From Protoeuglena noctilucae (lineage: Eukaryota), in NCBI GenBank assembly GCA_958009085.1, contig OY253682.1, forward strand, positions 620,001 through 684,000: a DNA stretch of 64,000 bases. The letters are read 5' to 3'. Below the pieces are notes generated by a model that was given only the letters and a program-made list of their open reading frames with translations, did no database searches and had not been told where the DNA came from. The position numbers and the translations under genes are program-made. The stretch's first letter is position 1, and every line of letters starts with the position of its first letter. This document shows positions 32,304 through 58,295 of this stretch, piece by piece.

Positions 32304-35300
32304 TCATGCCTGACTTCCCGAGGCCGGAGTCTCCGTCCCTGCTGCGCCCTCGCTCGCCGCGCCTCCCGAAGTCTGAAGTCACAGGCGCAAGGTGGTAGCC
32401 ATCAGCGCATCGCACTGAGAGGTGCAATAGCCAGGGTCTCTGCATGTCGCAGCAGAGCACAGATCAGGCATTCGAAACTGCATCACGCCTCTCACCAGGA
32501 TGGCGTCTGCCGCGGCCGGGGCGGCAGGCGGGGTCACAGGGAGCGGTGCCGGGCCCATGACGGGCCGGGGGTTGCCGCCAGCCCATATCCCGGCGGGGAA
32601 GAACTGGGGAGGGAAGACGATGGTGGTGCCGGGGGCGAGCTGGGTGCCCGGGGGTAAGAGCTGGGCGAGCGTGATGGGCGTGTGGGGCAGCACGGTTCCT
32701 GGGGCCTGCGACAGGCCAAGCGCCACGCCCTGCGTCGCCATGGGCAGCGACAGCGCGGGCATCGGCAGGGCGGGGGCCGACGCTGCGGCGGGGCTCGAGT
32801 TGGGCAGCGGCAGGGGCCCCGGTACCAGCGGACCAATGGGCGGCATGAGGGCGGTCAGCGGGAGGGGCCCGGCCGCCAGCCCGACCCCGGCGGGCAGCGG
32901 GGCCGTCGCCACCGGCGCCGCGGGCGTTCCGGGGACGCTCATCGGAGTGACCCTCTCCGGCTGCGCCCTGGGAGCGCCTGCGCCACCGTCCCCGCCGGCG
33001 CTGTCGCCCTCGGCTGGCGGCTGCGTGGTCCGGGGGTTGTGCAGCACGCCCGTGTCTGCCGAGCGGGGCAGCCGCTGCCCGCTCGTCTGCGAGAATCACC
33101 GGGCCGGCGGTTGAGATGGAAAAGCTGCAGGCGCCGCATCTCGGGCAACACATGTTTGGCATTGATATCTCCAGGCACGCCCCCAAGACCTGAAACCTCC
33201 GCGCGGCCCGGTGCGGCCGTCTCACCTGTTGCGCCGCGATGCCCAGCGCCGCGAGCTTGTCCTGGATGGCCTGCGGCATGGGCAGCGTGTGCTCGAACAC
33301 GGCCCCACGCGCGTGCGAGCACTCTGGGCACAGGAACCCTTCCGCCACGTCCGGGTCCTCCGAAGAGAGGCCAAGGCAATCCCAGTGGTACCAGTCCTGA
33401 GAGACGGGGGCGATGGTGGGGTCCATTGGACACCGACCATGTCCATGCCAGGTGGGCTAGCAACCGCGCCATGGTATGTGAGCGCGGGCAGTCACACGAC
33501 CAGGATGGCCATGGCCATGAGCCGCCCGCCCAGTCACCTTGCAGGCGTCGCATTCAATCATGCCCCTGCCGTCGAAGGGCCGCTTGCACAGGCAGTACGG
33601 ACGGGACCGGTCGCGGAGCTTCTGCAGCAACGCGCCCAGCGCCAGAGGGAGGCCCTCGCCCCGCGCCACCAGCTCCTGCACCTCCTGAGTCGGCGTCATG
33701 CTGTCGCGGGTCGCCACCCTCGCCTCCGCCAGCCACGCCCGCGCATCGCGCTCCAACGCTGTCAGGGCCGCCATGCACCAGTCCATGTCCTCGTCCAGCC
33801 CCGCCGCCGCGCCCTCCTGCAGCAGCCGCTGCAGCGCGTCCACCGTCAGCGGCGCCGCGTTGGGCCCCGGGCCCTCCCGCGCCACCGCCCGCGCCGCCAG
33901 GGGGGCGTGCCGCCGGCGCCACTTGTCCCCCCGCAGCAGCGTCAGGGCCGCCCGCCACAGCTCGTCGGACTCGATCTCGCAGGCGAACGCCGCCTTGCAG
34001 ATGCCCATCATCGCCCCGTCCCGCACCGCCTTGGTGGCGTGGCGGGGCAGCCGGCAGCCGGGCGGCGCCAGCAGGTCCCGCAGCACCTGCCGACCCTCCG
34101 CGAGGAACCTTCGGGACAAGCGAAACTAAGTTGGACTATTGTACTCTTCTGTTTGCACTTTCGCACCAGCTGTGCTGCCCCCAAGTCGCCATTCCGACAA
34201 GCAGCGCGTGCTGAGCGTGTGCCGGCCGTGTTTGCTCCCCATCGCCCTGGCTCCTCACCGCTCGTGTTTCTCCAGGATGCCCCCCAGCGTCCCCTCCCAC
34301 GGCAGCTCCCATGGCAGCTCCGCCATCTCCTGCGCCAGGCCTCTCAGCTGCTCCGCCGTGGCCCCCCGCGTCCGCCTCATGCGCGACGCCTGCTTGGGGT
34401 CCTCCAGCGGCGAGGCCCCCGCGTCCCGCAGCGAGATGCAGAACGGGCACACCCACCGCTTGATCCCCTTCACCTGCGCCTGACTCAGGCCCACGCACTT
34501 GGGGTGGAACGAGTCCGTGCACGTGTCGCACTGGACCATGGACCCCTCGGGCCCCCGGCACGGGCACTGCTCCCGCGCGCCCATCCCGGACACCCGCCGC
34601 ATGCGCCCCGCCAGGCCCCGGCCCCTCCCCTCCGTCTCCTCCTCCCCGGCCCTGGTCGGCGCCCTCCGCTGCCGCTGGCCCCGCCCCGCCGCCACGCTCA
34701 CGCCCTCCCACTCCGCCGCGCCCTGGCCCCCGGGGGTCTTGCGCGGCCGCCCGCCCCTCCCCTTCGTCGGCTGCGTTTCTGACAGCCCACTCTGGGGACC
34801 CTCCTCCGCCTCCTCACCCTCGCCCTCACCCTCACCGTCCCCGTTCCCCTCCTCCTCTCCCTCCTCCCCGTCGCCCTCGTCCTCCCCCGATTCCTCTTCG
34901 CTCTCAGACGCCCCCGCCTCGTCGGCCTGGTCTCCGCCCGGAGTCAGCAGAGCGCGTGCCGCACCCACCGTACCCTGGCACCTGCACATGAGGAAAGGGT
35001 CAGCCACGTGAGGAGGGGTGAAAGGTGAGGAGAGGTAAGGAGGGATGGAGCAGCGCCGCGAAGCATCGGATCAGCCAAGTTCAGGCGCAAGTTCAGTGCC
35101 CGGACTGCGGGCACTCAGACACGCCACGGTGCAGCTCACCAGTCCAGAGACCGCTCCACGGTGCCCAGGCATGCGGACAGCATCATGGCCCCGCTCTTGC
35201 GCATGAGAGCCGCGCGCAGGCGGCCCAGGACGCCCGTCGCGCGCCGGGAGACGGCCACGAGCTCCGCCGTGGGTCCGCTTGACAGTGGGGACCGCAGCAG

Positions 35301-38300
35301 CCGCAGCGTGACCTCGAGCATCTCCCGCAGTGGCCGGCGCGGCCCAGGCTCCGTCGCCCACGCCACGTCACGCGCAACACCGCGGTGCTCCTCCACCGCG
35401 GCCTCGAGCCCCGCCAGCGACGGCAGATGCACGTGGGGCATCTCCCGCGCCCGCTCCACCAGCGCCTCCACCGCACCCAGCATCGGCCTCTCCACGTCCT
35501 GCAGCTGCGTCACCACAAGCTCCACGAAGCGATCCTCCGCCTCCTGCCCCAGCTCCGACAGAGGCACCTCCCCCCGCGCAGTCCCGGGGGTCTCGGAGTC
35601 AGGCGTTGGTCCCGGCCACCCCACCTCCTCTCCGTCCCCCACCCCCGCCCCCTCCTCCACTTTGGGCACCTTGGCCACCCCTACCCTCCCCGCCCCCTTC
35701 CCCCCCTTGGCCGATCTCTTGGGCGGCAAGTGGTCCTCAAAGTCTTCGCCAAACGTCTTGCGCTTGCGCACACGCTTGGAAGCACGCACACCGTCCGCGT
35801 CGCTGTCGGCGGCGCCCCTGTCCGCACCCTCCCCCTTCGCACCGTCCTCTGCCGCCGCCGCTGCGGCTGCAACGACGGCTTTGGCACCCCCACCACGCCC
35901 ACGGCCGTTGGCCACCCCGCCCGCCGCCCGCCCCCGCCCGGCCTGCCCCTTCCTCCCAGCCTTGACCCCGCCCCTGCGCCCCCGACCCCGCATCGCCTCC
36001 GCCACCTGCGCCGGCCCCGCCTCTGCCGGCTCTGCTTCCCCCACCGCTGCCGCCACGTCCCAGGCGGACGTGGGCGTCGCTGCCGGTGTCCCCGTGGCAG
36101 TCGGGGTCTGCGGGGCCCCCGGCGTTCCCCTCTCGGCTCTCCGTGCGTCCCCCTCTTGCCGCAGCGCCTCCTGCCGGGCCTTCTGCTCTGCGGACTGCTC
36201 CGCCAGACGCACGGCCGCATGCACCGACTCCACTTCCTGGAGGATGCGCCTGGTGGTGAGCGAGGCGACGACAGGGTCACAAACAAGTCACGAGTGAGTA
36301 TGCGAGAACGTCGCTCGCGATGCAACCAGCCATGACGCGCCACGCAGCGGCAGGTCTCTCTCTCTGCCCACGCACCTGCCCTCCCTCTCCCACCCCTCCG
36401 CGTGCCCCAGCGTCCCCTGCAGAGCCTCCAGCGTCGGCCCCTCCACCTCGAGCCCCGCCGCCTCCTCCACGCACCGCCGCAGCTCTTCCAAATCCACCGG
36501 CTCCGCCCCCGCCGCCGCCGCCTCAGCCGTGGCGCGCTCCGCCAGGGGCCCCGCCCACCGCCGCCACTCCCACGCCTGCACCCGCGCCTCCACGCGGGCC
36601 ACGAGGGGCATCGTGACCCCCACGCCGCGCCCCTCCGCCAGCAGCGCCCGCAGAGGCTCCGCCGCTGCCTCGTCATCACTGGCCGAGGCCTCCAGCGCCG
36701 CCTCCGCCTTCGCGCACCACGCCTCCGCCTCCCGCAGCACCGCCTCGACCACCCTCATCTCGTCCACGATCACGCCGAGCCCGTCCGCGCTCTCCGAAAG
36801 GCCCCGGAGCTGCGCCAGGCTCCCCCGCTCCGCAGCCGGGGTGGTGGCCCCGGCGCCCGTACCCCCCGCCCGCTCGCCGCCTCCCCGCCGCGACCCTGTC
36901 CCTGCCGTCGATGGCGCCGGGGTGTGGCCGCCCTCCGTGGTTGCCGCACCCGTCCCTCCCGGGGTCTCTGGGCCGTCTTCGACTGTGGGGCCATCGACGG
37001 GGCCCTCCCCATCCATGTCTGCCGACTGCGACGGTGCAAAGGAGGCTTTGGCGTTGCCAGGCAGTCATAGGCGGGCACGGTCGTGTCACGGTCGTAAGTC
37101 AAGCATAGGGCTTTGGCCAGCCAAGTTAGGGGGCAACGTGCTTGCAAGAGCGTCCTTGTCGCCACGCCTGCTGTGCCAAGCCACTCACCGCCCCCGCCAT
37201 GGCCAGGCACGCGCGGGCCTGTCGCTGCCACTTGGCCGCGGCGTTGACGATCTGCTGGGCGAGGTTGAGCTCCTGCAGGCGCATTTGCAGGCGTGACCCC
37301 GACTCAATCAGCGCCTGCATTTCCGTGATGTGCGGCCGCGTGTCCACGTCGGGGGAAGGGAGCTCCTCCCCGTCCTCCCCGTCCGCCCTGCAAGCGAGGA
37401 AGGCTCGGGCCGCTGTAACGGCATCGTCAGAAGACGGGGCAGCAGCGTTCATGCTCGGCGTTAACCCCTTCCATTCGCAACTGCCTCTGCGCGATGGTTG
37501 GACAGAGATGCTGCCACGCACCGGTAACACCGCTCCATGAGGGCCTCGGACGACGCCAGCCACTCGTCCGCGCCCCTCACGCGCTCCCGCAGCTGCCCGT
37601 GGAGGTCCAGGCCCTCTGCCCCGACGTCGCCCGCCTGCCGCAGCAGCTCCCGCGCGGTTGTCAGGGTGCAGCGGCCCGAGAGCGCGCGCTTGGCTGCGGG
37701 GACGCGGATTTACAAGCTTTCTTGGCACACAAGCCCTCCCCACGCACCCAGACCCGTCGCCCATCCACCGCGCCCGTCACAGCAAGAGCAACGTCCCCCT
37801 ACACGCAAGCAACGCCTCACCCGCCTCCTCCCACTCGCGCCTCCGCATCTGCGTCCGGAACCCGCTCAGCATCTCGTCCGGGAGGACCACGTCGAGGCGA
37901 TCGAAGGAGGCCAATGCGTCGCGGATCTCCTTCACGGACGCCCGGCGGTCCAGGAGCCCCTGCAGACGCGCCATCCAGGCATCCACGCGCCGCACCGCCG
38001 CGGCGATGGCGTCCATGGCTGGCACGTGGCCGGGGACCTTGTCCGCCGACGCCTGGGCCTCCTTCAGCTGCGGCCGGGGCGGGAAGACGGGCGACGGTCA
38101 CTCTGCTGGCAACTAGCCCCATGTCGCATACCCTCATGCGGGCCCGCTGGCAAGAGGTAACCGTACAGTTGACGAACCGGAATGTTGATGGCACACGCGT
38201 CGGGACCCCCCGTAAACGACCCACCTCTTCCAGCGTGGGCTTGCGGGAGCCGTCAATCAGGTCAGCCACCTCCTCCTGCCACTCGTCGAGTCTGCGGATC

Positions 38301-41300
38301 GAATCCTGCAGGTGCCGCACCTCCGGCACCTCCATGTTCATCCGCAGCCCCTGCTGCAGCAGCGTGTCCATCTGCAAGCAGGAAAAGCCCCAGTTTCCAT
38401 AATGTGCCTGGTGGTGATGATGCACCATCCACAGCTGACCCCCGCCCAGTCTCCCAGCCATCCATCAGCGTCCGCAACCATCACACCCCGACCGCCAGTC
38501 TCCCCACTCGCCTCGTCTCTCGTGACCCGCTCCTTCATCGCCGCAATGGACGCCGCCTTCTTGGGAGCGGCCTTGCGCACCGCCTCGCACCACTTGCGAG
38601 CCGCGGTCACCCGCTCGTGCAGCTGCGCCACGCCCTCCCCCAGGTCCACCGGCAGCTTCTGCACGTCCTTGTCCAGCGCCTCCATGTCCTTCAGATCCCT
38701 CACCGGGGACTCCACCGCCACCCGGATGCGCTCGCGCAGCGTGTCGTACTCGGCCACCGCGCGGGCCACCTGTCAAGGAGCGAAGGGCATTGACCGGGTC
38801 ATGGCAAGCTGGCAGTGCACCCGCGGTGGCAGGCTAGAGTGCATCCCACGACTCGCCTTGTTGTACTCGTAGAACCTCACGGGCAGCGCCCCCAGCCGCC
38901 CCACCAGCGCCTGCAGCTCCTCCAGAGTGTTCTTGCGATTTGCAGCCTCCCTCACGTCGTCCACCCAGGCCTTCAGGTCCAGCAGCCGCCTGTAGAGATC
39001 CCGGACCTCCTGCACCTCGTGCGAACCCCACATGAACGCCTCGGCCTCACTGCGAGCCACAGGGGGGGCATCAGGGCTGAGAGGGTGGCACCGCGGCAGG
39101 CATGACAGGCAGGGGGGGCGACAACGGCGCGGAATGAAGCATGCCAACGCCCCAAGTTGCACCGCTCCCCTTGCGCACACCCCGCCTTCCCCTCACCTGA
39201 GCAGCTGCCGCACGGCCCCCAGCTCGCTGACGCGGCCCTCCAGGAGGTCCTTGGCGCCCGTCACCCACTCCCGCGCCGCCTCGCGCCACGCCGCCATGGC
39301 CGGTCCCTCCTGGGGCCCCAGCTCCGCCGGCATCTCGCGCCCCTCCTCCGCGGCCGCCTCCGCCGCCAGGGCCAGGGCCAGCGCGCGCCCGGGCGACCAC
39401 GCGGGGATCAGCATGCCGCGCTGGTGCTGCGGGATCGCCGCCGCCTCCTCTAAATCCTCGTCGCCCAGGTCCGCCCCCGCCCCCACGGCTGCCAGTTGGT
39501 CCGCCAGGTCCTCGAGCTCAGCGACCGTGTACCGGTAGTGCAGGCGCCACCGCCGCGCCCCGCACGCGCACAGGGACGACGGCGACGCGGCCTCGGGGCA
39601 CACGGCGCGGGTGGCACCGACCCCCGCGCACGACTCGCACGTGACCAGTCCGAGGTGCCGGGGCTGCCCCGTGGCGGCGCAGGGGGGGCTCGCGGCCGCG
39701 CGGGGGTCGGGCGCGAAGGGGAAGGGGTCGAGGGGCCCGACGGCCTGCGACCTCCGCACCTCAGCCGCCCACCCCGCTACGTGCGACTCGGCCTCCCTCG
39801 CCGCCACGCGCCGCACCTCCCACGCGAGCCACAGCGCCCCCGCCGCGCTCACGGGCTCCCCCGCCACCGCCGCCCGCGCCGCCGCCAGCACCAGCTCCTC
39901 GTGGCAGAAGGAGGGCGGCATGGGGCTGGCCAGGAATCGGTCGACGGACGGTCCCCCGTACCGCAGCCAGTCCGGCGGGGCGAAGTCGACGCGCTCGACC
40001 ACGCTGTACCCCGCGAGCACCTCGGCGTGGTAGACCCCGGGGAAGATGACCACGACCTCGCCCTGCTCCTGCGGGAGATGACACACGGGGCGGGTCGTTG
40101 GAACGTGATGATTGCGATAGCTGCAGCGTTCCCCGTTCACGACTCGTCAGCGCATGATGTCGCCGAGCATATCCAAGGAAGCCAACATGGCCCACCGCTC
40201 GCATCACTTGCCTGGTACACCTCGGTCACCGCCACGCCCGCGTCTGCCAAGTCATCAGGAGGGACAAGGCGCGGGAGCTGCAGGGGCCGCGCGACTGTCT
40301 GGCCGGGCTTGGCGTCCGACCCGCCCTCCAGTGCCTTGCGGCCGTCCTCCTGCGGCGCGGGATGGGAGCATACCACAGTCAGGGCGAGACCCTTGCCGGC
40401 CTCGCTGCTGCCACGGTTGCCATTGCCACATGCACTCCAGCCACGCCCGCCAATCGCCACTACTTCCACTGCCATCGCCAGCCGCATCCCGACTAACACA
40501 AGAACTTGCCCCGGCCCCTCACCATCGCCTTGGCGGCCATCTCCTCCAGGGCCGCCGTCCCTTGCGGAGGCACGGTGTACACGGCACGCGGCTTGCCGTG
40601 GTGCAGCACGCTCATGCTGTACAGCAAGTGGGGCTCCAGGCGCCACCCGCACGTGCTCCCGCAGATGCCCACGTCTAGGCGCGACCGCCCCAGGTGGCCC
40701 AGCTGAGACTCCGGGACGTGGCGCAGCATGCTCTCGGAGGCCAGCGCGGCGCCGGGGGAGGCCCGCGTTTCTACCGCGTCGCCGTCCGCCCCGTCGCCGT
40801 CCGCGGACCCCGGGGCTTCGGCCTCTTTCCGCCACCGCGGCAGGTCCCCCATGCCCCAGGGCCACTCGGCGTTGGGGCCCCCGGCACCGTACACGGAGGA
40901 CGGCACGTCCGCCGCGTACATCACCGTCATGGGCTCGTCCGCTCCCTCCACGACGCTCCAGAAGCGGTCCACGATCTCCCTGAAGGGCGGGCGAGTGGGC
41001 AGGGAGCAGGTGAGGTGACGGCAGGCGTGGGGTGGGGGACTGATCAGCGAAGGGTCATGCGACGCATGCTCATTCCCGGGGAAAGTGGCCGATCCCGCGC
41101 TTTTCCGCCACCCATGCCCCCACGTGCGCGTCACGAGCCAACCATCGACGCCCGCTCCACCCCCCGTCCCCCGTCGCTCGCCTGGCGTGCTCCTCCGTGG
41201 GCGTCTCCGCCTCCACGGCGGGTCGCCTCGAGGAGAACCGCATGAGCGTGCGCTCGGCCTCGTTCGACCGCCTCTCCAGCTGGCGGTACGTGAGGTCCAG

Positions 41301-43388
41301 GTCCCCCAGGGTCGCGGGGCCGTGGCCCCCGCAGAGGGGGCACAGCCAGTCCCCGCTGGGCACGCCCCGCATCGGCGGCGACAGGCAGTACATGTGGTAG
41401 CCCCGGTCGCACCGGTCACAGAGGATGATGCGGTCCTCGTGCTCCCCGCTGCGGCACACCTCGCAGAGCAGCTCGTCGATGTTCTCGGGCGCGCGGACGT
41501 CCTCGGTGACCTCCTGGGGCGCCTCCGCGCGGCGCTGCGGGCGGGGAAGGGTGGCAGTTCAGAGAAAGTAGCCAGGACGTCCCTGACGAGGCTTGCTGAG
41601 CGGGTGTGCATGGCGACGTATGCTCAGGAACCCCGATCCCCGAACCTTTCCAGACAAAGCCCACCTCTTCGCCCATCGCGTGCCCTCACCTTCTTCCGAG
41701 GGGGCCCCTTGGGCGGAGGCGGCGTGGGCGCGTCCGGGTCCAGGCGCTGCACTGGCATGCGCTTGCGCTGTCGCTTCCCGCCCTCCTCTTCGCGCGCCTC
41801 TCCCTTGCCGTCCTCCCCTCCACCCTTGCCCTCCTCCTCCCCCTCCCCGCCCCGCCCCTCCCCGCTGCCACGCGCCGCTCTCTCCCGACCGCCCCTCCGA
41901 CCCTTCGCCGCCGGCTTGGCGTCCCCGTCCGCGTCCTCCCCACCCTTATCTTCTCCCTTATCGCCCTCCCCAGCCTCGCCCTCCCCCTCCCCCAGCCCCT
42001 CGCCCCCCGTCAGCTGCAGCAACAGCTCTGCGTCCTCCTCGTCCACCGCCTCCACTTTCTGCGACCAAAACAAAAACATGCAAGCTTGGATTTGCAAAAC
42101 CACGCTCCCGAACTCTCACCTACGCACATCCCATGCGAGCCAGCCTAAGATCCTCAACCGCCCCCGTCACCTCCGTCGACCCCGAGCCAGCGCCACGTTT
42201 CCTCTCCCTCTCCCTCTCCCTCTCCTCGCGCGCTCTCTCCGCCCGCTCCTGCTCCATCTCCTGCTCCTTCAGCCAACCCTCGGTGAGGGCCTCCAGGAAG
42301 TCGGCGCCCTCGTCCTTGCTCCCGCAGAACTGCTCGTACTTGAGCAGCTGTTTCTGGTACAGGACGCGCAGCTGGGACGCGAGATTGCCGCTTTTGTCGC
42401 CGCATTGCAACTGCGGGCGAGAGCGGGGCGGCGCGGGCCCGTTGGCACTCTGCAGGGGCTGGAGCTCGCGGGAGCGTCGCGAGCGCGCCCGCGACGGGGA
42501 CCCCGAGACCGGCAGAGTCACGGGGACATCAGACATAGCATTTGCGAGCCCGTCGCATCTGCCCGGCGCCCCGCTTCGGCCCCAGCGCCCGGCGACTCGC
42601 CCCCATGACCCGGGCCACGTCCCGCCAAATCTTGGCCCCGTTGACGGCTTCGTACCCCCCGCGCTTTTCTACGGCACGATATAGTTTCGCCAGATCGATC
42701 TCCTGCCCGGCCAGGACGGGGTTGCGCTTCCCCGACTTGGTGCTCCCCGCCAACTCGAGAAACCTGCGCGCGCGCCGTGGGAGAGGCCCGTCGGGTCGCG
42801 GTCGTGCCCGCCGTCGACATGTCACTCAAGGGCGCCCTAGGCAGCGCGTGGCGGTCGCCCCGGCCCTCCCGCGGCGCGGCCCGCGCGGTCGTTCCTCGCC
42901 CCCCTCACTGGCCCCTGCCCGGCCCTCCCGCGCCGCGCCCCGGCCCCGAAATCCCCGGAGGAGGCCAGCCGAGGCCTCGACAATCGACAAAGAAACACAT
43001 GCGGGGTGCGGAGGGCTGCGGGGCCCCCCGGTGGCGCCGCACGAGGGGTGGGGCATGGTCCCGCCCCAGCTGAGGGGGTCCTGGCGCCCCGCCGCGCTGC
43101 GCCTCGCCTGGCAAAGTCGGCTTGGAACTCCGCAGTGGCCGCTTTGACCTGTCCGCGCTCGCAGAGCTTGTCCACGGCCTGCGGCCGGGCCCGCAGCTTG
43201 ACCCCCTCGCGATCAAGGTGGAAGGGGAGAACGAACTGGGGGGGCGGGATGATCTTGCAGCACCCGAACGGCTCCGCCTCCCCGCGTATCTTGCAGATGT
43301 ACGCAATAGGATCAAGCCACTCCTCCTCCGTGGGCCGGAACACGGGCGCCTGGGACACCAGGGACCCGTCCTCCGTGAACTCCGCCAT
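32304..43388 (-). CDS. KDM5/JARID1-like protein: JmjN-ARID-PHD-JmjC(degenerate)-C5HC2(degenerate)-PLU-1-like-PHD-PHD
   Basis: JmjN APVFRPTEEEWLDPIAYICKIRGEAEPFGCCKIIPP; ARID IDLAKLYRAVEKRGGY; PHD CEVC...LCDRCDRGYHMYCL...WLCPLC; JmjC QEQGEVVVIFPGVYH and FAPPDWL; two C-terminal PHD fingers. Confidence 0.92.
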
Positions 43389-45050: not shown

Positions 45051-46741
45051 ATGGGCAAGGAGAAAAAGGAAAAGAGGGAGAAAGGGGAGAAGGGGGAGAG
45101 CAAGGGCTCTCGCGCAAAGCACGTAAGTTGCAATGGACTGGGCCTGATCGTACACGCGGCATTCAGGCGCCCAGACGCGCGCGCCGGGGGTGCACCAGCA
45201 CCGCGCTGGCCGGCGGCCCGCGTCGCGCCGTCCGTGAGCGATGCCCGAGGTATTTGCGCTCACTCCATGCTTTTACACCCGCAGATCTCAAAGGCCGACC
45301 TACCGGAGCATCTCGAAGTCCAGCGGACGCGCGTGCTGTGCGGGCCCGAGCAGAATGCTTACACCGGCACCGTGACGAGCGCTCACGCCTATGGTGAGAG
45401 AGCTTTTCCATCAGACAACTGAGAAGTGTTTATGGCGTGACGTGCGGGTCGCGGGGGCGCCTCCTGCGGCTGAGTTTGGGCGACCTCCTTCCTGCAGCGG
45501 GGCTGGGCGTGGACAACAGTTGGGACTTGAACGCGTTCAGGAGCAGTCTGCGCATCGAGGTGGGGGGCATCGCATACCTCCGCGCATGCCTGTCAGCGCC
45601 GGCGCCGCGCCGCGTCTTTTGGCTCACCTGCGGTCCAGCTCGCGCCCAGGTCACGCGGTTGACGGACGAGTCGGTGGAGTTCGACCTGGTGGGGGTGGAC
45701 CCAGCGATCGCCAACGCGCTGCGCCGCATCATGATATCCGAGATCCCCACCATGGCCATCGAGCACGTCTTTTTCGTCAATAACACGTCCATCATCCAGG
45801 ACGAGGTCCTCGCGCATCGGCTGGGCCTGATCCCGATCCTCGCGGACCCCTCCAAGTTCGCGACGAGGGGCAAGGAGGACTTGGCGAACGAGCGCAACAC
45901 AATCGTGCTGCGCCTGCGCCACCGGTGCCGCACGCTCGAGGGCGAGGACGCCCGGGTCTACTCCAGCGCGCTGGAGTGGTTGCCGGGGGGCTCCGAGGTG
46001 CGTCCGCAACTGCACCTGCAGTCGGGAGCAGCGGGAGGGGGATTAGCCCGGACATGCCAGGGATGCGTTGCGTGCCCTGCCCATCCTTGCCCTTCTTTGC
46101 TCTGTGCAGATGCCGGAGGAGACGTCCTGCGCCTTCACCGGCAGTCAGACGGAGGTGCACCCGGCGGCCATCCGCCCCGTCCACGAGCGCATTCTCCTGG
46201 CACGCCTGCGCCCGGGGCAGGAGATCGACCTGGAGGCCCACTGCACGAAGGGCGAGGGGCAGGAGCATGCCAAGTGGTCGCCCGTGGCCACCGCGTGGTA
46301 CAAGCTGCTCCCGGAGGTGGTGCTGAGGCGGGAGGTGATGGGGGACGACGCCGATGCGCTGGCGGCGGAGCTGCCGGGGCTGGTGGTGGTCCAGGGGAAG
46401 GGGGCGGGGCGCTGCGCGGAGGTGGGGGACGCCCGGAAACACGACAAGCTGCTCGAGAAGGCGAGTGAGCGCTGCGGTGTATGCCGTGTGATTCATTCAT
46501 GGAGGACTCCTGGGGCGGCAGACCCATGGGCAGACCCATGCATATTACGGTTCGTGCTTTGCCGCAGGTGCGCCGGCTGTCGGGGGAGCCGAGGTGGGCG
46601 GGGGTGCTGGAGCTGCGGAAGGTGAAGGACCATTTCCTCTTCACCGTCGAGACGACGGGGGTGCTGAAGGCCACTGACGTCTTTGCGCAAGCCATCGACG
46701 TGCTGGTGGCCAAGTGCGACAAGGCTCTCCAGGAGCTCTGA
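45051..46741 (+). CDS. RPC40: RNA polymerase I/III shared subunit AC40 (RPAC1/POLR1C)
   Basis: EFDLVGVDPAIANALRRIMISEIPTMAIEHVFFVNNTSIIQDEVLAHRLGLIPI, ILLARLRPGQEI, HAKWSPVATAWYKLLP and HFLFTVETTG. Confidence 0.96.
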
Positions 46742-46850
46742 GGGTAGACCCAGCGCGTGCTGCATCTCAGGATCGCTTTGAAAGTGGAAACAGAGACAGC
46801 CGAGCTCAGCCCGGGGTCCGGTTCTACTAGTTACTATCGCTAGCACGTCG

Positions 46851-49800
46851 CTAGCCCTTCATTGCCTCAATGGCGGCCACTGTGTCCGCGTGCCGCTTAG
46901 CTCCCACCGACATCTGGTGCGGGGCCGTCTTGGCGGCGGCGCGGGACGAGGGCTGCTTGCCGCGGCCGAACAGGGCGAACCGCCTGCGAGGCTCTGCTGC
47001 AGATGGGGCCGCTTGTGCAGATGCCGACCCCCCCTCGGGCGCTGCTGGAGACGCGTCTGCGTCAGATGTGGATGGCCGCCCCTCCGCCGCCGTGTCACTC
47101 CCCTCGCGCCCCGACGGTGTGGGTGTCGCGGTTGCCCTGCCCGCATCTGCATCGGCCGCCCCTGCGCCCGACGGCTCAGCGTCGTCGTGCCTTGCAGCCG
47201 GCGTGGATCGTCCAGCATCCATCCCCTCGCTCTGCGAGCGCGGCAGTCGGAGGGAAAGTCAGCAACTTCAAGGGCTCGGTTCCTCATCCCAGCTGAAAAC
47301 GTGCTTAGCACAAAACCATCTGCCCGCGCTACAGCGGGGCAGGGCGCACTCACCCCGCCGGTCGCGGATAGCAGCTTCCGCCTCGAGTGCTTCTGCATCT
47401 CCACGCCCATCAGCGTCTGCGGCAAGCGTGGGGTGCTACGGGTCGAGGGGCCGGGGCACAGCATCACAGAACCACCCCCCATCCTCATGGCGGCCGCCAC
47501 TCACCCTGCTGTTGGTCTTGCCCAGGCCTCGCACGGCCTCCGACACGTTCGCAGACTTGCCCGCGACCCCCTCCCCGTGCCCCTGGCCCTGGCCACGGCC
47601 GGCCTGGGGACCCTGGGCCGCCTGGTCGGCGTCAAAGCCCTCGAAGTCGAAGGACTTGTAGAGACCGAGGCCCACGGAGATGTTAGATGGCATTAGGCCG
47701 CTGCAGGAGGCCGGGACGTCCGGGTGAGCGTGCAACAACACGCACCAGGGGCGCGTGGGTCAGCAGTGCGCCAAAGGCCCAATGCAACGTCAACTTCCAC
47801 CAAGTGACGGTGGGCCACGATGTTTCTCAACATTCCTCGCAGCAGCGCTCGCCTGTACGGCACCGGCCGGAAGGTGTTCCGGTTGCCGATGCTCCTCTGC
47901 ACCTCGATGAGGCGGCTGGAGAAGCGCTCCATGACCTCCAGCTCCCTGGGGTCCTCCAAGAGGGGGTTCTTGAAGTCGATCAGCGTCTCGCACTTGGCCG
48001 TCAGGCCCTTGGAGAAGAGGTGCATGGCGGCCACTATCACGGCCTCCTCGCTGACGTCGGGCAGCGCCTGCCGGAGCATCTCCTCGGCCACCTGAGGCAG
48101 AGAACGATGGGAGAGGAGGGTCGCGATGTGCGAAAGGTGGGCGAGGAGCGCAGCGGCGCGCTCGCACGCAGGGACTGTCGTGGCGAGCGGTGCAGGTGTG
48201 GATCAGGCAGCCGGGTGCAATGCTTGCCTTGTCCCCCCGGGCGAGCGGGGGCGGCATGTGGAGCTTCAGAGGCCGGACAGCGGGGTGCCCGTGGTAGTTG
48301 AAGAGCTGGGAGGCGAGGTAGCTGTTGCGGGCCGAGGTGGTCCATATGATGCACATGAGCACGCGCGCCACGGACGACCGCAGCTCGAACCCCGTCGTGC
48401 GCACGTGAGGGGCCTCCCCCGCGTCGGGGTCCTTGGTGGGGATGCCCTCGTTCACGAGGTCCACGAACCAAGACTGGGGGGTGGAGGGGGGCGTTGGCTG
48501 TGCATGAGCTGGCGTGCACGAGGCATCCGCAGAGCGCAGCACGTATCGCGAAATCGTCGTGGTGTCTGAACGCTGAAGCACAGTCTCACTTGCAGCTCCG
48601 GGTCGTCCACGCACGACTCCTCCTCCGGGTAGTGGATGGCGAGGAAGTCCTGCACCAGCCCCGCCATGGCGTCCCATAAAAGCTTGGCATCCTCGCGGAA
48701 GGGGTACGGCGTGGGCGCGTCCTCCGCCTTCATGCCCTGCAGCAGCGACAAGGGTGAAGCGACGGGGCATGAGATAACGCCGAGCGAGCGATTGGTGCAG
48801 CGACAGGATTCGGGCTCAACGCTTGGCGTGCGTTGCGGAACTCACGGCAAGGATGGCGTCCGGCGCGGCGTCCTCGAGTGCCCACGTCTTGTAGAAGAAC
48901 TTCAGGAGGTCCTCGAAGGCCTCCAGGGAAATGGAGCAGAAGCGGTCCCAGAAGCCACTGCCGTCATCACTCGTGAACCACTCGCTGCGGGGGGAGGCGG
49001 GCAGGCAGGGTGGTGGCTGCCGAGAAGACAATGGTCAGCCGCATGAACAGCAAAGGGAAGGGTTTGAGAACGCCATGTGTCAAAGCGCAGGGCAGACGCA
49101 GATGCAGAGATAAAGGGCGGTTGATGGGCTTGTGACACCCAGGTGCATCTGAGATTGCGGAGCGGCGCGCTGCGCACCGCACGGCGGCGTTGGCGGCGAC
49201 GACGTCCTTGAGGAAGGGGTGGAGGAAGCGGTAGACGGGGTGGGCGTTGGGGAGGGAGCGGAACATAGTGATGGCGACGGGCTCCATGACCAAGAGGGTC
49301 TTGAGGTACCACTGGGGAGGAAGCCAGAACCAGCGTTTGGCCATGGCCCTCGACATGTGGGTGTGCTTGTTTCATGAGCGAAGACTTGCGCAACACACAG
49401 ATTCAAAGTCAGCATGAGCGCCGCTGGCCCCACAGCCGCTCACCTCGACCCCGAGGGTGTACATGGCGTCCGCGTTGCCCACAAAGGCCTTGGCCAGCAG
49501 CCACGTGAAGTTGTCGTCCAGGGGCGTGAAGATGCGGTGGCGCTCGTCGAACTGCAGCTCGAGGACGATGGCCACGGGGACCACGGCGACCTTCTCGTCG
49601 ATGCGCAGGGGGTTGTCCACGCGCTGGCTGGCGTTGTACACGTACAGCAGCGCCTGCAGGAAGCGGGCCGGCGGTGGGGCGCGTCGTAGGCGGTCGCGCC
49701 GCAGATTGACCCACGCAAGGCCGGGTGTCCCAGACAGAGACAGTGAGCGACGCCAGGCATGGAAGATCCGTACATGGCTTTCCGCACTCCCTCCACCTCG

Positions 49801-52558
49801 TCCTCACGGTCACCTGGGGATAGCACGCGTATCGCTTGTCCGGCAGCGACACGATGGCGTCCTCCCCCAGGTCTGACAGCGCCTCTTCCACGGGGGAGAA
49901 GTCGACGTGGAGCAAGTGGCCCTGGCGCGCCTCCTCGTCCAGGTCACTGCCGGGCGGCACCAGCAGCGCCAGCCACTCGCGGGGCACGCGCCTGCGGGGG
50001 CGGGCCAGGGCGTGGATGCGTCATGTGCGGAGGACAGCCAATCATGAGACGTGCGAATGGCGAGAGCGAGGCATGCGCCCCCACCGGAAGGCCCAGGGCA
50101 CGGTGCGTGCGACCCGGAAGTTGTGGGGGTTGCACCCCTGGACGAACTGCCTGCCGAACTCAATGTCCACAGCCCATCGGTCTTGCCTGACCATGAAAGG
50201 GATGGCGCCCTGGAAAGGCGCCGCCATCGCCGCCTGCGGAGGCACAAAGCATATGGCAGTCAGCAACCGCGGGAGGTACCTGAGCATGACAGAGCGACCA
50301 TACTTGGAGTCATCATCGACGGGCCACGCACCTGCTGCTCCACGTTCCAGTCCTGCTTGGAGTCGTTGGCCAGGTTCTCCCCGATCATGCGGCTGGGCAT
50401 GCGACCCATGTAGATGGGGTTCACGCTCCCCTTGAACCTGTGGAACTCCTCCAGAGACTCGGGCTCCACAGGCTCGGACTCCTGGGGGTTGCGGTAGGTG
50501 GGCAGAGTGGGGGCACTGCCAGGATGGGAGCAGGTGCAAGCCCGGCTCGACGTGCCATCGCATGCCATCGCTGCCATGTCACGGCTGTCACCTGCACCGT
50601 CTCCATCGGCTCGTCGGGTCCGCTGTCGTCCTCAAACCAGTTGATGTGCGCCGACGCAGCGAGGGACTCCAGGTACCTGCGAGAAGCGCGGGAGGATGAT
50701 GTGTTGGCACGCAGGGGTCTCAGGTAACGCATCCCACGCTAACGCAGCTGCACACAGGCATGGGCGGCACCCCGCCTCCCATCCCCGCTCGCCTCTGGTG
50801 GGTGAGCTTGGACATCTGGATGGTGGCCAGGTCGCCCATCCCCAGCCGCTTCTCCACGACCGCCTCCACCTTCACCCCCGCATCCTCCGCCGCCTTCAGC
50901 CACTTCTTCTTCCCGGCCCCCTCCCGGGACGTCTTGGCACGCCCCGGCATCTGCCCCGTGGCCTTGGCGATGCGCGCCGCCTCCCGCGCATCGATCGCCT
51001 CCTTCCGCCGAGCGCGGTCCCGCTCCAGCTGCTCTTGGATCTTGCGACGCTCCTTCTCCAGCTCCTCCTGCACCCACGCATGCGACGTCTTGAATGGCTC
51101 TGTCGCGGTGCCTGGATGGCCATCCCAGGCAGGCGCCGACGGCAAGCAAGGGGCCAGCAAGGGCACACGCGATGCAGCGCAGGAGACTCGCCTCCGTCAT
51201 GAAAGCGGCGCCCTTGCCCTCGTCCAGCTTGACGACTTTCCCACCAATCAGGATCTTGGCCACTTGCTTGGTCTTGCACCGGTTGGGGGCGCAGAAGTCG
51301 GCGATCTGCTTGGCCCTGCGGCCGACGCCGAATGCGGGCAAGTGACGGCCGCCCTGATGCACAGGCACGCGGGGTCGCACAGGCACACATGCGGCCCCCG
51401 CCTCGCCTGTCAAAGGTCCGCTCCTCCTCCTTCATCGCATATAGCTCCCCGAACACGGAACCCTCCCGATCGTCCCCAAAGAACAACGACGACCACTTCT
51501 GCGAGCGCAGTTGAGCAGCGCGATGGCAGGTGCCCGGCACGAGTGTGCTGGCGCCGCTCAGTCCCGACATAGAGCGGCTTTGTCCCCCGCACCTTCCCCT
51601 GGGCGTCCAGCAGGTGTCCCGCCCCGCAGCTGAGCAGCGTCACTTGGGCCTCGTCCAGCAGCTCCACCAGCATACCCACGCGCGCGTCCACGGGCCTCTG
51701 GTCGATGGGGAGCTGGTCGAAGTCCTCGAAGCGGGAGGAGGCAGGGAGGCCGGGGGTGGTGGTGAGCTGGAAGGCCGCCTTGCGGGCCTCGACCTCAATG
51801 GCGCGGGCCGCCATCTGGTCCGGGGAGGCGAGCTGGGGCACGGGGCTGGACGCGGGGAAGAAGGTGCGGACCTCGTTGGCCTGCGCGAGCAACACGGGCG
51901 GGGCCACCGGGTGAGCAGGTGGTGAGGGGGACCGGCAGAGGAGGCGGGAGGGCACCCAGCAGCCCTCGCCTCGACCCATCCGAAGCAAGGGAAGGTGACC
52001 ATGTTGCCGGGGGTGGACACGTCGATGGCCAGGCCGTCGCGCATCAGGCGCTCGATCTCGACCCGCAGGACCTGCCACGTGGCGTCCTCCGGGACGTCCT
52101 CCCCGTCGGCAAACCGGTTGGTGAAGGCGATGAAGTCGATGGAGCCCAGGTCGTCCGTGGAGGGCACGCGCAGCTCCTGCAGGTGCGTGCCGTCCGGCAT
52201 CACCCTCAGCGGCTCCATGCCCTCGCACCAGGGGTCCTCCGAGTTGTTGCTCGGGCGCAGGCGGAGGGGCTTGGGGGCGCGCCGGTTCGACGAGGCCCCG
52301 ACGATGAGCTCGGGGTGCGCGCCCTGCGCATTACCCGTGAGCAAAGCTCCAGGTTCGACATGCCCAGCGAGAGGCCGCGACACCGCGGCGCTCGCGGTCC
52401 CCGAAAGGGACACGCCACGTCGCAGATGCCGGGGCCTGCCGCGCAGCTGGGTTAGCAACCCCGCGTCCGCTCACCTTCCCCGTGACATTATGACGACCTG
52501 AATAGATGCGGATACAGTAGAGCTGGAGCTCGAGGTTCTTGCTCTTCGCGTTGCCCAT
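46851..52558 (-). CDS. PLAT-lipoxygenase homologue, predicted catalytically inactive, with an N-myristoylation motif and C-terminal extension
   Basis: PLAT-like FPCFGWV; LOX motifs DIEFGRQFVQGCNP, PVAI, IFTPLD..WLLAKAFVGNAD, RSLPNAHPVYRFLHP, YPFREDAKLLWDAM, DDPELQ|SWF, IIWTTSA and PY.|.LMPSNI. Confidence 0.88.
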
Positions 52559-53231
52559 GTCGACCTCGCGTGAACATGCTAGGGCCCGTCGCGGGCGAGG
52601 GGCAGGGAGAAAGACGCGTCCTACACTTCAGCTGTCCACTTCACTTCCTCAGCGTACCGAAAGGGGACCAAGGGGGGCGCTCGACGCTGCTGGCGCCAAG
52701 GCGCAAAGCTGGGCCAAGGGTTCCACAGGGTTAGAACGAAGACATGAGGTGCACCCGTGTGTTTTACGCATCGTGTTCTCTACCCAGAGGGTCGCAGGGA
52801 CGCATGGATGCCGAATTGCTACCCCTGACACCCGTTCGCAGGAAAACAAAGGGGTCATACCCAGCCGCCGGCAGGCATTTTTAAGCCCGCGCCGGGACGC
52901 CCGGCCTCCACATGCGCGGGCGACTGACGGGTGACCGACAACGAGCTCAGCGCGAGGCAATCTCTTCAAGTGAGTCTCGCAGGGTTGCTCTCTTCCTGCT
53001 GCTGTGTATCGCCCATCCAGCCCATCCAGCGCTCCGTTGGCGCCCGCCATTGCTCACCGGGCCGGCTGACTGTGAGGCCGCTGGCCCAGTGTTCGCACGG
53101 CGGCTATTTTCGGCCCCCGCCACCCCGCCGCCTTTCCCGCGCCCAGCGGCGCTCCGAGCCCACGGCCGGCCCCGCCGCCGCTTTATTTTTGATTTTCACG
53201 CCTCGTGCCGGGCCCTGCGCTGACGGCGACC

Positions 53232-56595: not shown

Positions 56596-57045
56596 GACAG
56601 GATCAGAGCCGGTACAAAGGCAGGGACAGCGCAAGCAATTGCAAAGAAAGGCAATTGCGCGAGCAGATGAAGGCGGACAGCAGCGGCGAAGGAGGGCTGG
56701 GACGCCACGGCCTCCAATGTCGCGTTGTCCACAAAACACGTCGTCTGGCTGTCTTTTCTGATCACTGGTGAAACTTCAGAAACTGGCCCTTCCCAAAGGC
56801 TGAGAAGCCACGTCATGCGCAACGCACCCGGCAAACACTTGTATTTATGCTCTTCTCTGCTGGCCCCTGGTCACCCGTCTTCAGCCAGCCTCTGCCTTGC
56901 GCCAAAAGGCTCAGCGTGGGTACGCCGCCACCCCTACCAACGATTTGGCTTCGATTTCTTGCCCCATCCATCCGCGTGCGAGAACGTCTTGCCCAGAAGC
57001 GCCTGTCACGGCGGCAGGGCATCCTGCACAGGGCGGTGGAGGGTC

Positions 57046-58295
57046 ATGAGCGAGGCGGCCAAGGACGACGAGGGAGGAGATGCCCGCCTCGTCACGGCGA
57101 CCCTCAACATGCAGGGGATGATTGTGAGCAGTGCTTGCGAGCCAGCTGCCGACTGGGATTCCCCGGATGCCACTCCTGCGACCAGTCCCGCCCTGGGAGT
57201 CTGTTTGCGCCCCTACTTGCCGCTGGCGGGGTCGCCGACGCCTTCCGCGACAGCATCGGTCGTCATCCTTGCGGGCGGAAGCCAGCACGTAATCGGCCGC
57301 ATCGCCCCTCGCCGCAGGAGGTGGACCTCGATGAGATCGAGGAGGACTTCCAGTGCACCATTTGCAAGGGGATTTTCAAGCAGACCCACTACCTGGTCCC
57401 GTGCATGCATCTGTTCTGCAAGAGCTGCATCGAGGAGGCGCTGCGGAAGCAGACGAAGCCCTCCTGCCCGCAATGCCGGCACCCGGTGCCGTCCCGGCGC
57501 TCTGCCAAGCCGGACACCTCGTGGGACGAGCTCGTCGAGGCCTTCTTCGGGACAGACGTGGACGAGTACGAGGAGCAGAAGATGAAGCGCATCATGGAGA
57601 TGAGCCGGAGGAACATGGCCACCGTGCTGGCGGCGCAGAAGCGCCAGGCGGTGCTGTGGGGGGATGCTGGGGACCAACCGGCGGCAGCGGCAGGGCCGTC
57701 GAGCAAGCGGCGCAAGACGGACGCACCGGTGGCTTTCGCACCCCTGGAAGCGGAGGATGCCTCCCCAGCGGTGCGTGCGCCCGCCTACGCCAGGCTGTGC
57801 GCCCTTGCACCCTTACAGCGTAGCCCCGTGCGCTGGTGTGGCGACTCTGCGCGCGCCTTGGGCCTGCAGGAAAACGATCAGCTTGCGGCCGCGATCACTA
57901 GCAACCAAGTGGACGAGGAGACCAAGGACATGATGACGCTGCAGCTGTGGCCGGGGCGGGGCATGCAGGGCCTCAAACGCTACGTGGTCTGCATCCCCGG
58001 CCAGGCAACGGTCTACGACGTTGCGGTGAGGGTCGGCTTCACTGCGGGTTGCGGTCCTGTGGGGTGTTGTGCTGTGGGGGCGGTGCCGTGGAAGGTTGTC
58101 GCATTTGCCCCCTGGGGCCTGTGTCGCTCGCAGCTCGCCATGGAAGAAGTCATCGAACGGGGTATCGAGCTGGGGGGCAGGGGGGCCAACGACGTCGAGG
58201 TGGAGGTGGATGGGAACGTCCCATGCAATGACGTGCCCAGCACCATCGTAGACGAGGTGTCGGGCTTTGCGCGGCTCACCTACCACGCGGCTTAG
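57046..58295 (+). CDS. C3HC4 RING protein resembling PRC1 RING1A/B, with a possible RAWUL-like C-terminus
   Basis: FQCTICKGIFKQTHYLVPCMHLFCKSCIEEALR...CPQCRHPVPSRRSAKPDTSWDELVEAFFG.DVDEYEEQ parallels the RING1 pattern CPxCR....SRRSLRxD..FD.LI..L..D...YEE. C-terminal LQLWP...LKRYVVCIPGQATVYDVA. Confidence 0.75.

Follow-up and report, generated by a model that had tools for sequence, protein, structure and literature searches.

Lipoxygenases are studied as makers of oxylipin signals, which in marine plankton are associated with stress, grazing and lysis by viruses. Their iron is held by five ligands, consisting of three histidines, one Asn or His, and the free carboxylate of a C-terminal Ile. 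Here we describe a lipoxygenase (LOX) homologue encoded on the minus strand of a 64,000-nucleotide stretch of DNA from Protoeuglena noctilucae (assembly GCA_958009085.1, contig OY253682.1, positions 620,001 to 684,000; the whole of this stretch is termed the window), in which alignment to solved enzymes finds a replacement at each of these ligand positions. The gene is a ligand-less variant of a well-known enzyme family, and it is conserved and expressed in marine microbial eukaryotes.

The closest described systems are the animal-type iron LOXs, which we compared using coral Gersemia 11R-LOX (3vf1), human ALOX15B (4nre, 7laf, 8viy), ALOX12 (8ghb), 5-LOX (3o8y) and coral AOS-LOX (2fnq, 3fg1). 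These enzymes give the best sequence matches with the helix order kept, and they share with the window protein a series of scaffold motifs (W..AK, (L/V)MEP, LP..HP, the WT.S helix, PPP, and P(Y/F) near the end) as well as, by a non-significant alignment, an N-terminal domain ending in FPC..WV before the helical domain. The window protein differs from them in having none of the five metal ligands, in continuing past the C-terminal position by 199 residues (by about 1190 in P0003, an environmental homologue described below), and in carrying a charged insert of 170 residues and, at its N terminus, the motif MGNAxS.

Three further comparisons are instructive. ALOXE3 (epidermal lipoxygenase-3) lacks ordinary dioxygenase activity; it still has the ligands, and it uses its iron to isomerise hydroperoxides. 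The window protein would resemble ALOXE3 as a LOX-fold protein in a role other than classical dioxygenation of polyunsaturated fatty acids (PUFAs), but it retains none of the ligands that ALOXE3 keeps. Pseudoenzymes of other metal-dependent families have in common with it a fold that is under selection after ligand loss, although the fold itself differs. Finally, Src-kinase type anchors combine a myristoyl group with basic residues at the N terminus; the likeness here, which is at the level of sequence, extends to the Met-Gly start, a small residue at position 3, Ser6, Lys5 and Lys7, whereas the orthologue of the window protein has Ile5 and Arg7. Full-text literature searching, with subscription journals outside its coverage, found no paper on a ligand-less lipoxygenase homologue. 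One report (PMC2784329) mentions an Emiliania expressed-sequence-tag cluster weakly similar to a putative lipoxygenase, and a link from it to this gene could not be made.

Family membership and the former metal site

The coding sequence and the part of it that corresponds to the LOX catalytic domain are located as follows.

46851-52558, minus strand: whole coding sequence, 19 exons, 1177 residues plus stop, from the exon model together with RNA contig joints for 16 of the 18 introns
47661-50233, minus strand: lipoxygenase catalytic-domain homologue, exons 9-17 up to Leu978, with matches to PF00305 and to LOXs in the Protein Data Bank (PDB) and 48.5% identity to P0003

We scanned 17 exon peptides against Pfam, where the Lipoxygenase family (PF00305) has a curated gathering cut-off of 23.6 bits. 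Four of the 17 matched this family, colinear with its profile, and two of them did so above the cut-off alone (expect values are given as E).

Exon 9: PF00305 profile positions 180-217, E 0.022
Exon 12: profile positions 351-392, E 1.4e-7, 30.9 bits, above the cut-off
Exon 14: profile positions 460-498, E 5.9e-6, 25.5 bits, above the cut-off
Exon 15: profile positions 522-566, E 0.14

When exons 11, 12 and 15 were compared with the sequences of solved structures, the top matches were lipoxygenases, and the best was each time the coral 11R-LOX 3vf1. To these matches we can add those of homologues. Exon 15 (82 residues), used as the query of a full HMMER search through 1.84 billion representative proteins, yielded six matches at E <= 0.001, three of which are genuine homologues; the other three were repeat proteins and were discounted. 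The genuine homologues, with identities and E-values for the exon 15 query, are as follows.

P0001: 169 residues, 62% identity, E 1e-26
P0002: 484 residues, 55% identity, E 1.9e-12
P0003: 2291 residues, 44% identity, E 7.3e-10

All three come from environmental assemblies, with cluster sizes of 1, 5 and 8, respectively. P0003 scores 86.9 bits against PF00305 and P0001 scores 25.1 bits. Searched against the PDB, P0003 matched 3vf1 best (E 9.6e-35), and all 52 sequences found at E <= 0.01 were lipoxygenases; E-values ran from 9.6e-35 to 1e-25 for animal-type LOXs, from 6e-19 to 6e-11 for plant LOXs and from about 1e-10 to 6e-15 for bacterial LOXs, with 1e-3 for a fungal Mn-LOX. In the ESM Atlas, 30 of 30 feature matches were LOX clusters (score 0.96), at a recognition value of 1580 that lies below the reliable range and adds little. 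Judged by these sequence comparisons, the protein is a true member of the lipoxygenase family, and the assignment is statistically sound.

A later profile search gave three matches, consisting of two open reading frames (ORFs) from exons in the window and P0019, the equivalent of exon 11 on the contig that encodes P0001. The P0019 frame enters non-homologous sequence straight after ...LAVE, at the point that corresponds to the end of window exon 11, as expected of an intron at that position. A search for exon 15 homologues among 51 longer candidate proteins gave none that was significant. With residues 590-1105 of P0003 as the query, 8000 shorter candidates were scored without a significant match; P0001 and P0002 were missed as well, which points to a fault of the word filter. 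Separately, prokaryote-style ORF calls over exons 11 and 12 (49180-49653), P0018 and P0020, occur on 19 and 20 contigs, the longest of 1.0 Mb, so the same organism has been assembled many times, and yet the protein collection lacks a spliced full-length product of this gene.

We mapped the ligand columns from alignments to solved lipoxygenases, and placed the corresponding residues as follows.

49309-49311, minus strand: Trp664, column of the first ligand His, first codon of exon 12; Trp in P0003 too (P0001 and P0002 do not cover it)
49294-49296, minus strand: Leu669, column of the second ligand His, from the exon 12 alignments; Val in P0003 (P0001 and P0002 do not cover it)
48324-48326, minus strand: Asn853, column of the third ligand His, from the exon 15 alignment; Asn in P0001 and P0002, Ser in P0003
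48312-48314, minus strand: Ala857, column of the fourth ligand (Asn/His), from the ungapped 2fnq alignment; Leu in P0001, P0002 and P0003
47661-47663, minus strand: Leu978, column of the C-terminal iron-binding Ile; internal here, with 199 residues after it

The exon 12 alignments set 'lktllvmep' over 'LRCHLMMEP' of 3vf1 and over 'LNTHLVAEV' of a 12-LOX, so that L669 occupies the column of the second His. Against 3vf1, exons 11 and 12 match residues 343-386 and 394-433 without any offset, and W664, five residues before the second His, therefore falls on the first ligand His. P0003 aligns across this region in one piece, with 'iewylrtvvvmep' over 'ithllrchlmmep' of 3vf1, so that its w and v each stand over an h. 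In exon 15, 'sarnsyla' lies over 'scqhaavn', so that N853 stands at the third His and, in the ungapped alignment to 2fnq, A857 stands at the Asn. At the C terminus, the P0003 alignment reaches residue 693 of the 698-residue 3vf1 chain, beyond which five further residues, VGLGV, take up what is left of the enzyme; the counterpart of these residues in the window protein is VGLGL, ending at Leu978.

Lipoxygenase enzymes are recognized by an H-x4-H pair on the long central helix, by a third His with Asn, His or Ser four residues on, and by the free carboxylate of a C-terminal Ile or Val. The window protein has Trp664/Leu669 in the first position (Trp/Val in P0003), Asn853/Ala857 in the second (Asn or Ser and then Leu in the homologues), and the internal Leu978 in the third, where P0002 and P0003 are extended as well, with about 210 and about 1190 residues beyond VGLG. 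On these alignments, all five lipoxygenase iron ligands are missing. The initial annotation, made from the letters of this DNA, had read the two Fe-binding histidines as replaced by W and L, the third by Asn with a neighboring Asn changed to Ala, and the chain as running about 200 residues past the terminal Ile position. We arrive at the same replacements: W664 sits at exactly the codon it named, the exon 12 alignments independently place L669, both exon 15 changes fall where it had put them, and the continuation measures 199 residues. Homologues with ligand losses also exist elsewhere, as it had thought worth looking for; four lineages carry such losses (the window, P0001 with P0019, P0002, and P0003), and the three environmental ones include the syntenic orthologue P0003 (W/V/S/L).

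These columns bear on whether the protein could still be an enzyme, with a LOX fold that holds some other metal site or performs metal-free hydroperoxide chemistry of an isomerase- or lyase-like kind. At the ligand positions the new residues are themselves conserved or semi-conserved (Trp in the two sequences that span its column, Asn in three of four), several family-wide histidines lie close to where the metal used to sit, such as those in the HGHP and PHV motifs of exon 15, and the 48.5% identity of the core fits a catalytic role as well as it fits binding. However, the coral enzyme, which contains iron, has the HP of HGHP too, so that this HP is ancestral rather than part of a new site, and P0003 has CGHP, with Ser in place of Asn853, leaving no invariant alternative set of ligands. 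Metal-free catalysis on the LOX fold is not known to have a precedent. A retained catalytic function is therefore unlikely in our view, and what these sequences make very likely is an iron-free, non-dioxygenase LOX-fold protein that is under selection.

Splicing, transcription and a syntenic orthologue

Exons were read from the sequence and assembled by coordinates. The start codon (ATG, 52558-52556) is the first in-frame Met and is preceded by an in-frame stop with no Met between them; the stop codon is TAG (46853-46851), and joining all 19 exons gives a single open frame of 1177 codons. The interval proposed by the initial annotation is exactly this coding sequence, from ATG to TAG. The end of exon 2, at 51970, was set by pieces of RNA contigs, and RNA contigs also extend the gene on both sides of the coding sequence.

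52559-52764, minus strand: 5' untranslated region, minimum length; record 3 of run X1 covers 52515-52764
46776-46850, minus strand: 3' untranslated region; contigs from runs X1, X2 and X3 end at 46776-46778, a weak hint of the true RNA end

The RNA comes from four marine metatranscriptome runs (X1-X4) belonging to one study, which in an index search contained 29-47% of the sampled words from the 5.7-kb stretch; DNA-like runs in the same search contained all of the sampled words. RNA contigs of this kind inform on splicing, not on expression level. Fifteen RNA joints were listed, and every one is an intron of the model (introns 3-5 and 7-18); X1 has 15 of them, X2 11, X3 9 and X4 none. A single X1 contig (record 2) spans intron 2 with two of its pieces, bringing the joints seen to 16 of 18, and the joints of introns 1 and 6 were absent among the at least 15 RNA joints listed. 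One X1 contig of 2354 nucleotides carries exons 9 to 19 in spliced form, and of the 28 contigs from X1-X3 that were placed on the locus, all except two are at least 99% like it. X4, with no joints and with several pieces extending into introns, may be DNA or unspliced RNA, and we treat it as neutral. The joint next to the first ligand column, 49444/49311 (GVE/WYLK), was found in X1 and X2, and no differing letters were reported, so that the spliced reading DAMYTLGVE/WYLKTLLVME on which the initial annotation depended is present in RNA; the remaining exon boundaries seen in RNA, whether by direct joints or, for intron 2, by contig pieces, match the model as well. We conclude that the gene is transcribed and correctly spliced.

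P0003 is encoded on L001, a 16.6-kb contig with 71% GC, and is colinear with the window protein from the N-terminal domain to the VGLG motif. Identity between the two proteins varies by region.

N-terminal domain: 49.2% (59/120)
Residues 151-270: 46.7% (56/120)
Residues 271-314: 50% (18/36)
LOX core: 48.5% (238/491)
Charged insert: 23.5% (23/98)
C-terminal tail: 24.6% (46/187)

Just upstream of the long ORF of L001, in another frame, we found MGNAISRAEQVYRIRVFSGYHIESG, the counterpart of window exon 1, followed by a GT or GC donor and a CAG acceptor that give an in-frame joint to ...DACPELILG. This intron (L001 4590-4762) is the only one in the orthologue and has the position of window intron 1; the other 17 introns of the window gene have no counterpart in L001. 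As read from the two sequences, 18 introns versus one amounts to massive intron gain or loss between related lineages.

At both loci an Rpb3/AC40-like RNA polymerase subunit gene is convergent to the LOX-like gene (window 45398-46465, plus strand; L001 11578-12609, minus strand), and the two copies are 46% identical (E 1e-47). The presence of this neighbor at both loci shows that the LOX-like genes are orthologous and lie in conserved microsynteny. Orthology in turn implies that the metal site was already lost, and that the C-terminal extension and the MGNAxS start were already in place, before these two lineages, now <50% identical, separated. A search for related loci with P0003 recovered only its own contigs, L001 and L002.

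With splicing and orthology established in this way, we considered whether the gene is instead a pseudogene in decay, or whether the exon model is at fault and another splice form restores the histidines. This had to be considered because every catalytic residue is lost, and we found no support for it. The frame is open for 1177 codons over 19 exons, 16 of 18 joints occur in RNA with only one form at each of the 15 joints listed, the orthologue reads W...V in one continuous intron-free frame, and ligand losses are common to four lineages. Because the frames are intact, the RNA is spliced and the domains are conserved as opposed to unalignable linkers, decay can be excluded; because the orthologue has no intron in this region, so can a His-restoring splice form, and no alternative exon of that kind was seen among the listed joints. 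Together these explanations are extremely improbable. Besides the losses common to four lineages and the shared synteny with P0003, the signs of selection are that the folded blocks are 47-50% identical to P0003 versus 23.5% for the insert and 24.6% for the tail, and that open frames of 1177 and about 2300 codons have been kept. The gene is a maintained and expressed pseudo-lipoxygenase, not a decaying gene; in this the view of the initial annotation prevails, given spliced RNA, family matches, and a ligand-less state in the syntenic orthologue and two further lineages.

The introns have a feature of their own. Six of the 18 (introns 2, 4, 5, 6, 15 and 16) have GC donors, five of them GCGAG and one GCAAG, and the rest have GT; five of the six were seen spliced in RNA contigs. 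bioRxiv 10.1101/2024.10.30.620910 gives a GC-donor share of 0.3-2% for plants and animals and 14-17% for pelagophytes, and the share in this gene (6/18) is far higher than the former and above the latter. The same source describes frequent GC-AG introns in GC-rich pelagophytes, at an intron density far below that of this gene. We rejected an origin from introners, as there was no similarity among the 18 introns or between them and the rest of the window.

N-terminus, insert, tail and neighborhood

Outside the LOX core, the protein consists of the following parts.

52475-52558, minus strand: exon 1, with the MGNAKSK start (Gly2, Lys5, Ser6, Lys7); candidate N-myristoylation signal and first strand(s) of the N-terminal domain
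51970-52323, minus strand: exon 2, conserved domain at the N terminus, PLAT-like in where it lies and in ending with FPCFGWVE; 50% identity to the matching part of the L001 protein
51192-51880, minus strand: exons 3-5, conserved block before the detectable LOX core, presumed first part of the LOX helical domain; 46.7% and 50% identity to P0003
50332-51067, minus strand: exons 6-8, charged, partly coiled-coil-like insert, residues 315-484, lineage-specific; 23.5% identity to P0003, effectively unaligned
46851-47660, minus strand: C-terminal tail, 199 residues plus stop, unconserved and with few hydrophobic residues; 24.6% identity to P0003

N-myristoylation follows a PROSITE-type rule of Gly2, an allowed residue at position 3, Ser, Thr or a small residue at position 6, and no Pro at position 7. 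The MGNAKSK start agrees with this rule as well as with the MGxxxS consensus seen by the initial annotation, and its position as the first in-frame Met after a stop makes it the protein N terminus. In L001 the start reads MGNAISR (Ile5, Arg7), and a MGNAxS start in both the window and its orthologue strengthens the idea that the protein may be myristoylated.

Of the two Pfam models brought up by the initial annotation, Lipoxygenase was recovered (exons 12 and 14 above the cut-off), whereas PLAT (PF01477) was not: none of the 17 exon peptides, exon 2 among them, matched it at E <= 1. A profile of the N-terminal domain built from the window and L001 gave three chance matches in the PDB, none of them PLAT, and the FPC..WV end of this domain aligns to the end of the N-terminal domain of 3vf1 with a non-significant score of -2.0. 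Exons 3-5 had no family match in Pfam, and a profile of the exon-3 block gave only chance-level matches in the PDB. RCC1-repeat-like matches that appeared in the PDB profile searches of the N-terminal domain and the exon-3 block (E 0.05-1.6) were discounted as chance-level.

The C-terminal tail, which had no Pfam match, is composed of 85% disorder-promoting and 11% hydrophobic residues. By composition and divergence, the insert and the tail look like interaction regions. The tail of P0003 (residues 1106-2291, L001 7948-11505) is about 1190 residues long and matches no Pfam family. A stretch of ~120 residues is repeated within it, as a cluster member aligns to two places, with 37% identity at the second.

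A non-catalytic protein of this kind could also be a regulatory partner or decoy of an active LOX paralogue, dimerising with it or competing for its substrate or membrane site. Pseudoenzymes often act on active relatives, the solved animal LOXs, which are the closest relatives, include dimeric forms, and the LOX body is well conserved between the window protein and P0003, all of which would suit such a role. However, there is no second LOX-like region within the window, and both the acylation motif conserved at the N terminus and the long tails suggest that the protein has a role of its own. We regard a partner or decoy as quite unlikely, and prefer a membrane-held protein with its own binding or scaffold function.

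Elsewhere in the window, a neighboring ORF at 56772-58292 (plus strand) encodes a C3HC4 RING finger (E 8.7e-9), and a weak JmjC match lies on the minus strand at 40496-41623. Over the 8 kb from 34001 to 42000, GC content is 0.71-0.72 and GC skew is strongly negative, down to -0.26.

Proposed role and significance

The family membership, the ligand loss, the expression and the conservation described above show a LOX-family protein that is unable to build the metal centre and is under selection. We think it likely that it works without catalysis, probably as a membrane-held binding module or scaffold. Four ligand side chains have been replaced (His by Trp, His by Leu, His by Asn, and Asn/His by Ala), and the fifth ligand, the free C-terminal carboxylate, is abolished by the 199-residue extension of the chain. 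An N-terminal myristate, the neighboring lysines and the N-terminal domain would hold the protein on a membrane. The helical LOX body, which has been retained, would then act either as a module that binds fatty acyl chains or oxidised lipids or as a rigid scaffold. Lineage-specific partners would be recruited by the insert and the tail, both of them variable and probably disordered. The pattern of conservation suggests that selection acts to preserve the fold and perhaps the lipid channel. A lipid-binding membrane scaffold is our best guess at the role.

Several points weigh against this proposal. A single study stands behind all of the RNA evidence, and the first two ligand columns are covered by two sequences only, those of the window and P0003. 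Asn853 could in principle still ligate a metal. There is an earlier in-frame ATG (MGSSS...) in L001, where the MGNAIS start is assigned by homology only. The DNA of the relatives is unsuited to a ratio of nonsynonymous to synonymous substitution rates (dN/dS), as L001 is too divergent and L002 covers 180 residues at 100% identity. Finally, an AlphaFold2 model of P0003 residues 1-1105, built on a 15-row fragment alignment, was unusable (mean predicted local distance difference test score, pLDDT, 37.5; predicted template modeling score, pTM, 0.34).

A more far-reaching version is speculative, and we offer it as doubtful: that this is the first LOX pseudoenzyme family, a membrane-tethered receptor or sensor whose emptied channel, with Trp in the former iron site, binds polyunsaturated or oxidised lipids and signals via the disordered tail, linking lipid peroxidation during stress, grazing or viral infection to signaling in marine protists. 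To our knowledge, receptors for oxylipins and PUFAs are largely unknown in protists, and the window protein is a candidate oxylipin or PUFA binding protein.

Spliced marine RNA in three runs of one study means that the gene is active in the natural communities sampled there. The finding is also a warning for annotation, because a Pfam score alone would label such proteins 'lipoxygenase' and the oxylipin-making capacity of metatranscriptomes would be over-counted. For the family as a whole, a conserved and expressed member that is incapable of holding iron would mean that the LOX fold has a second, non-catalytic use.

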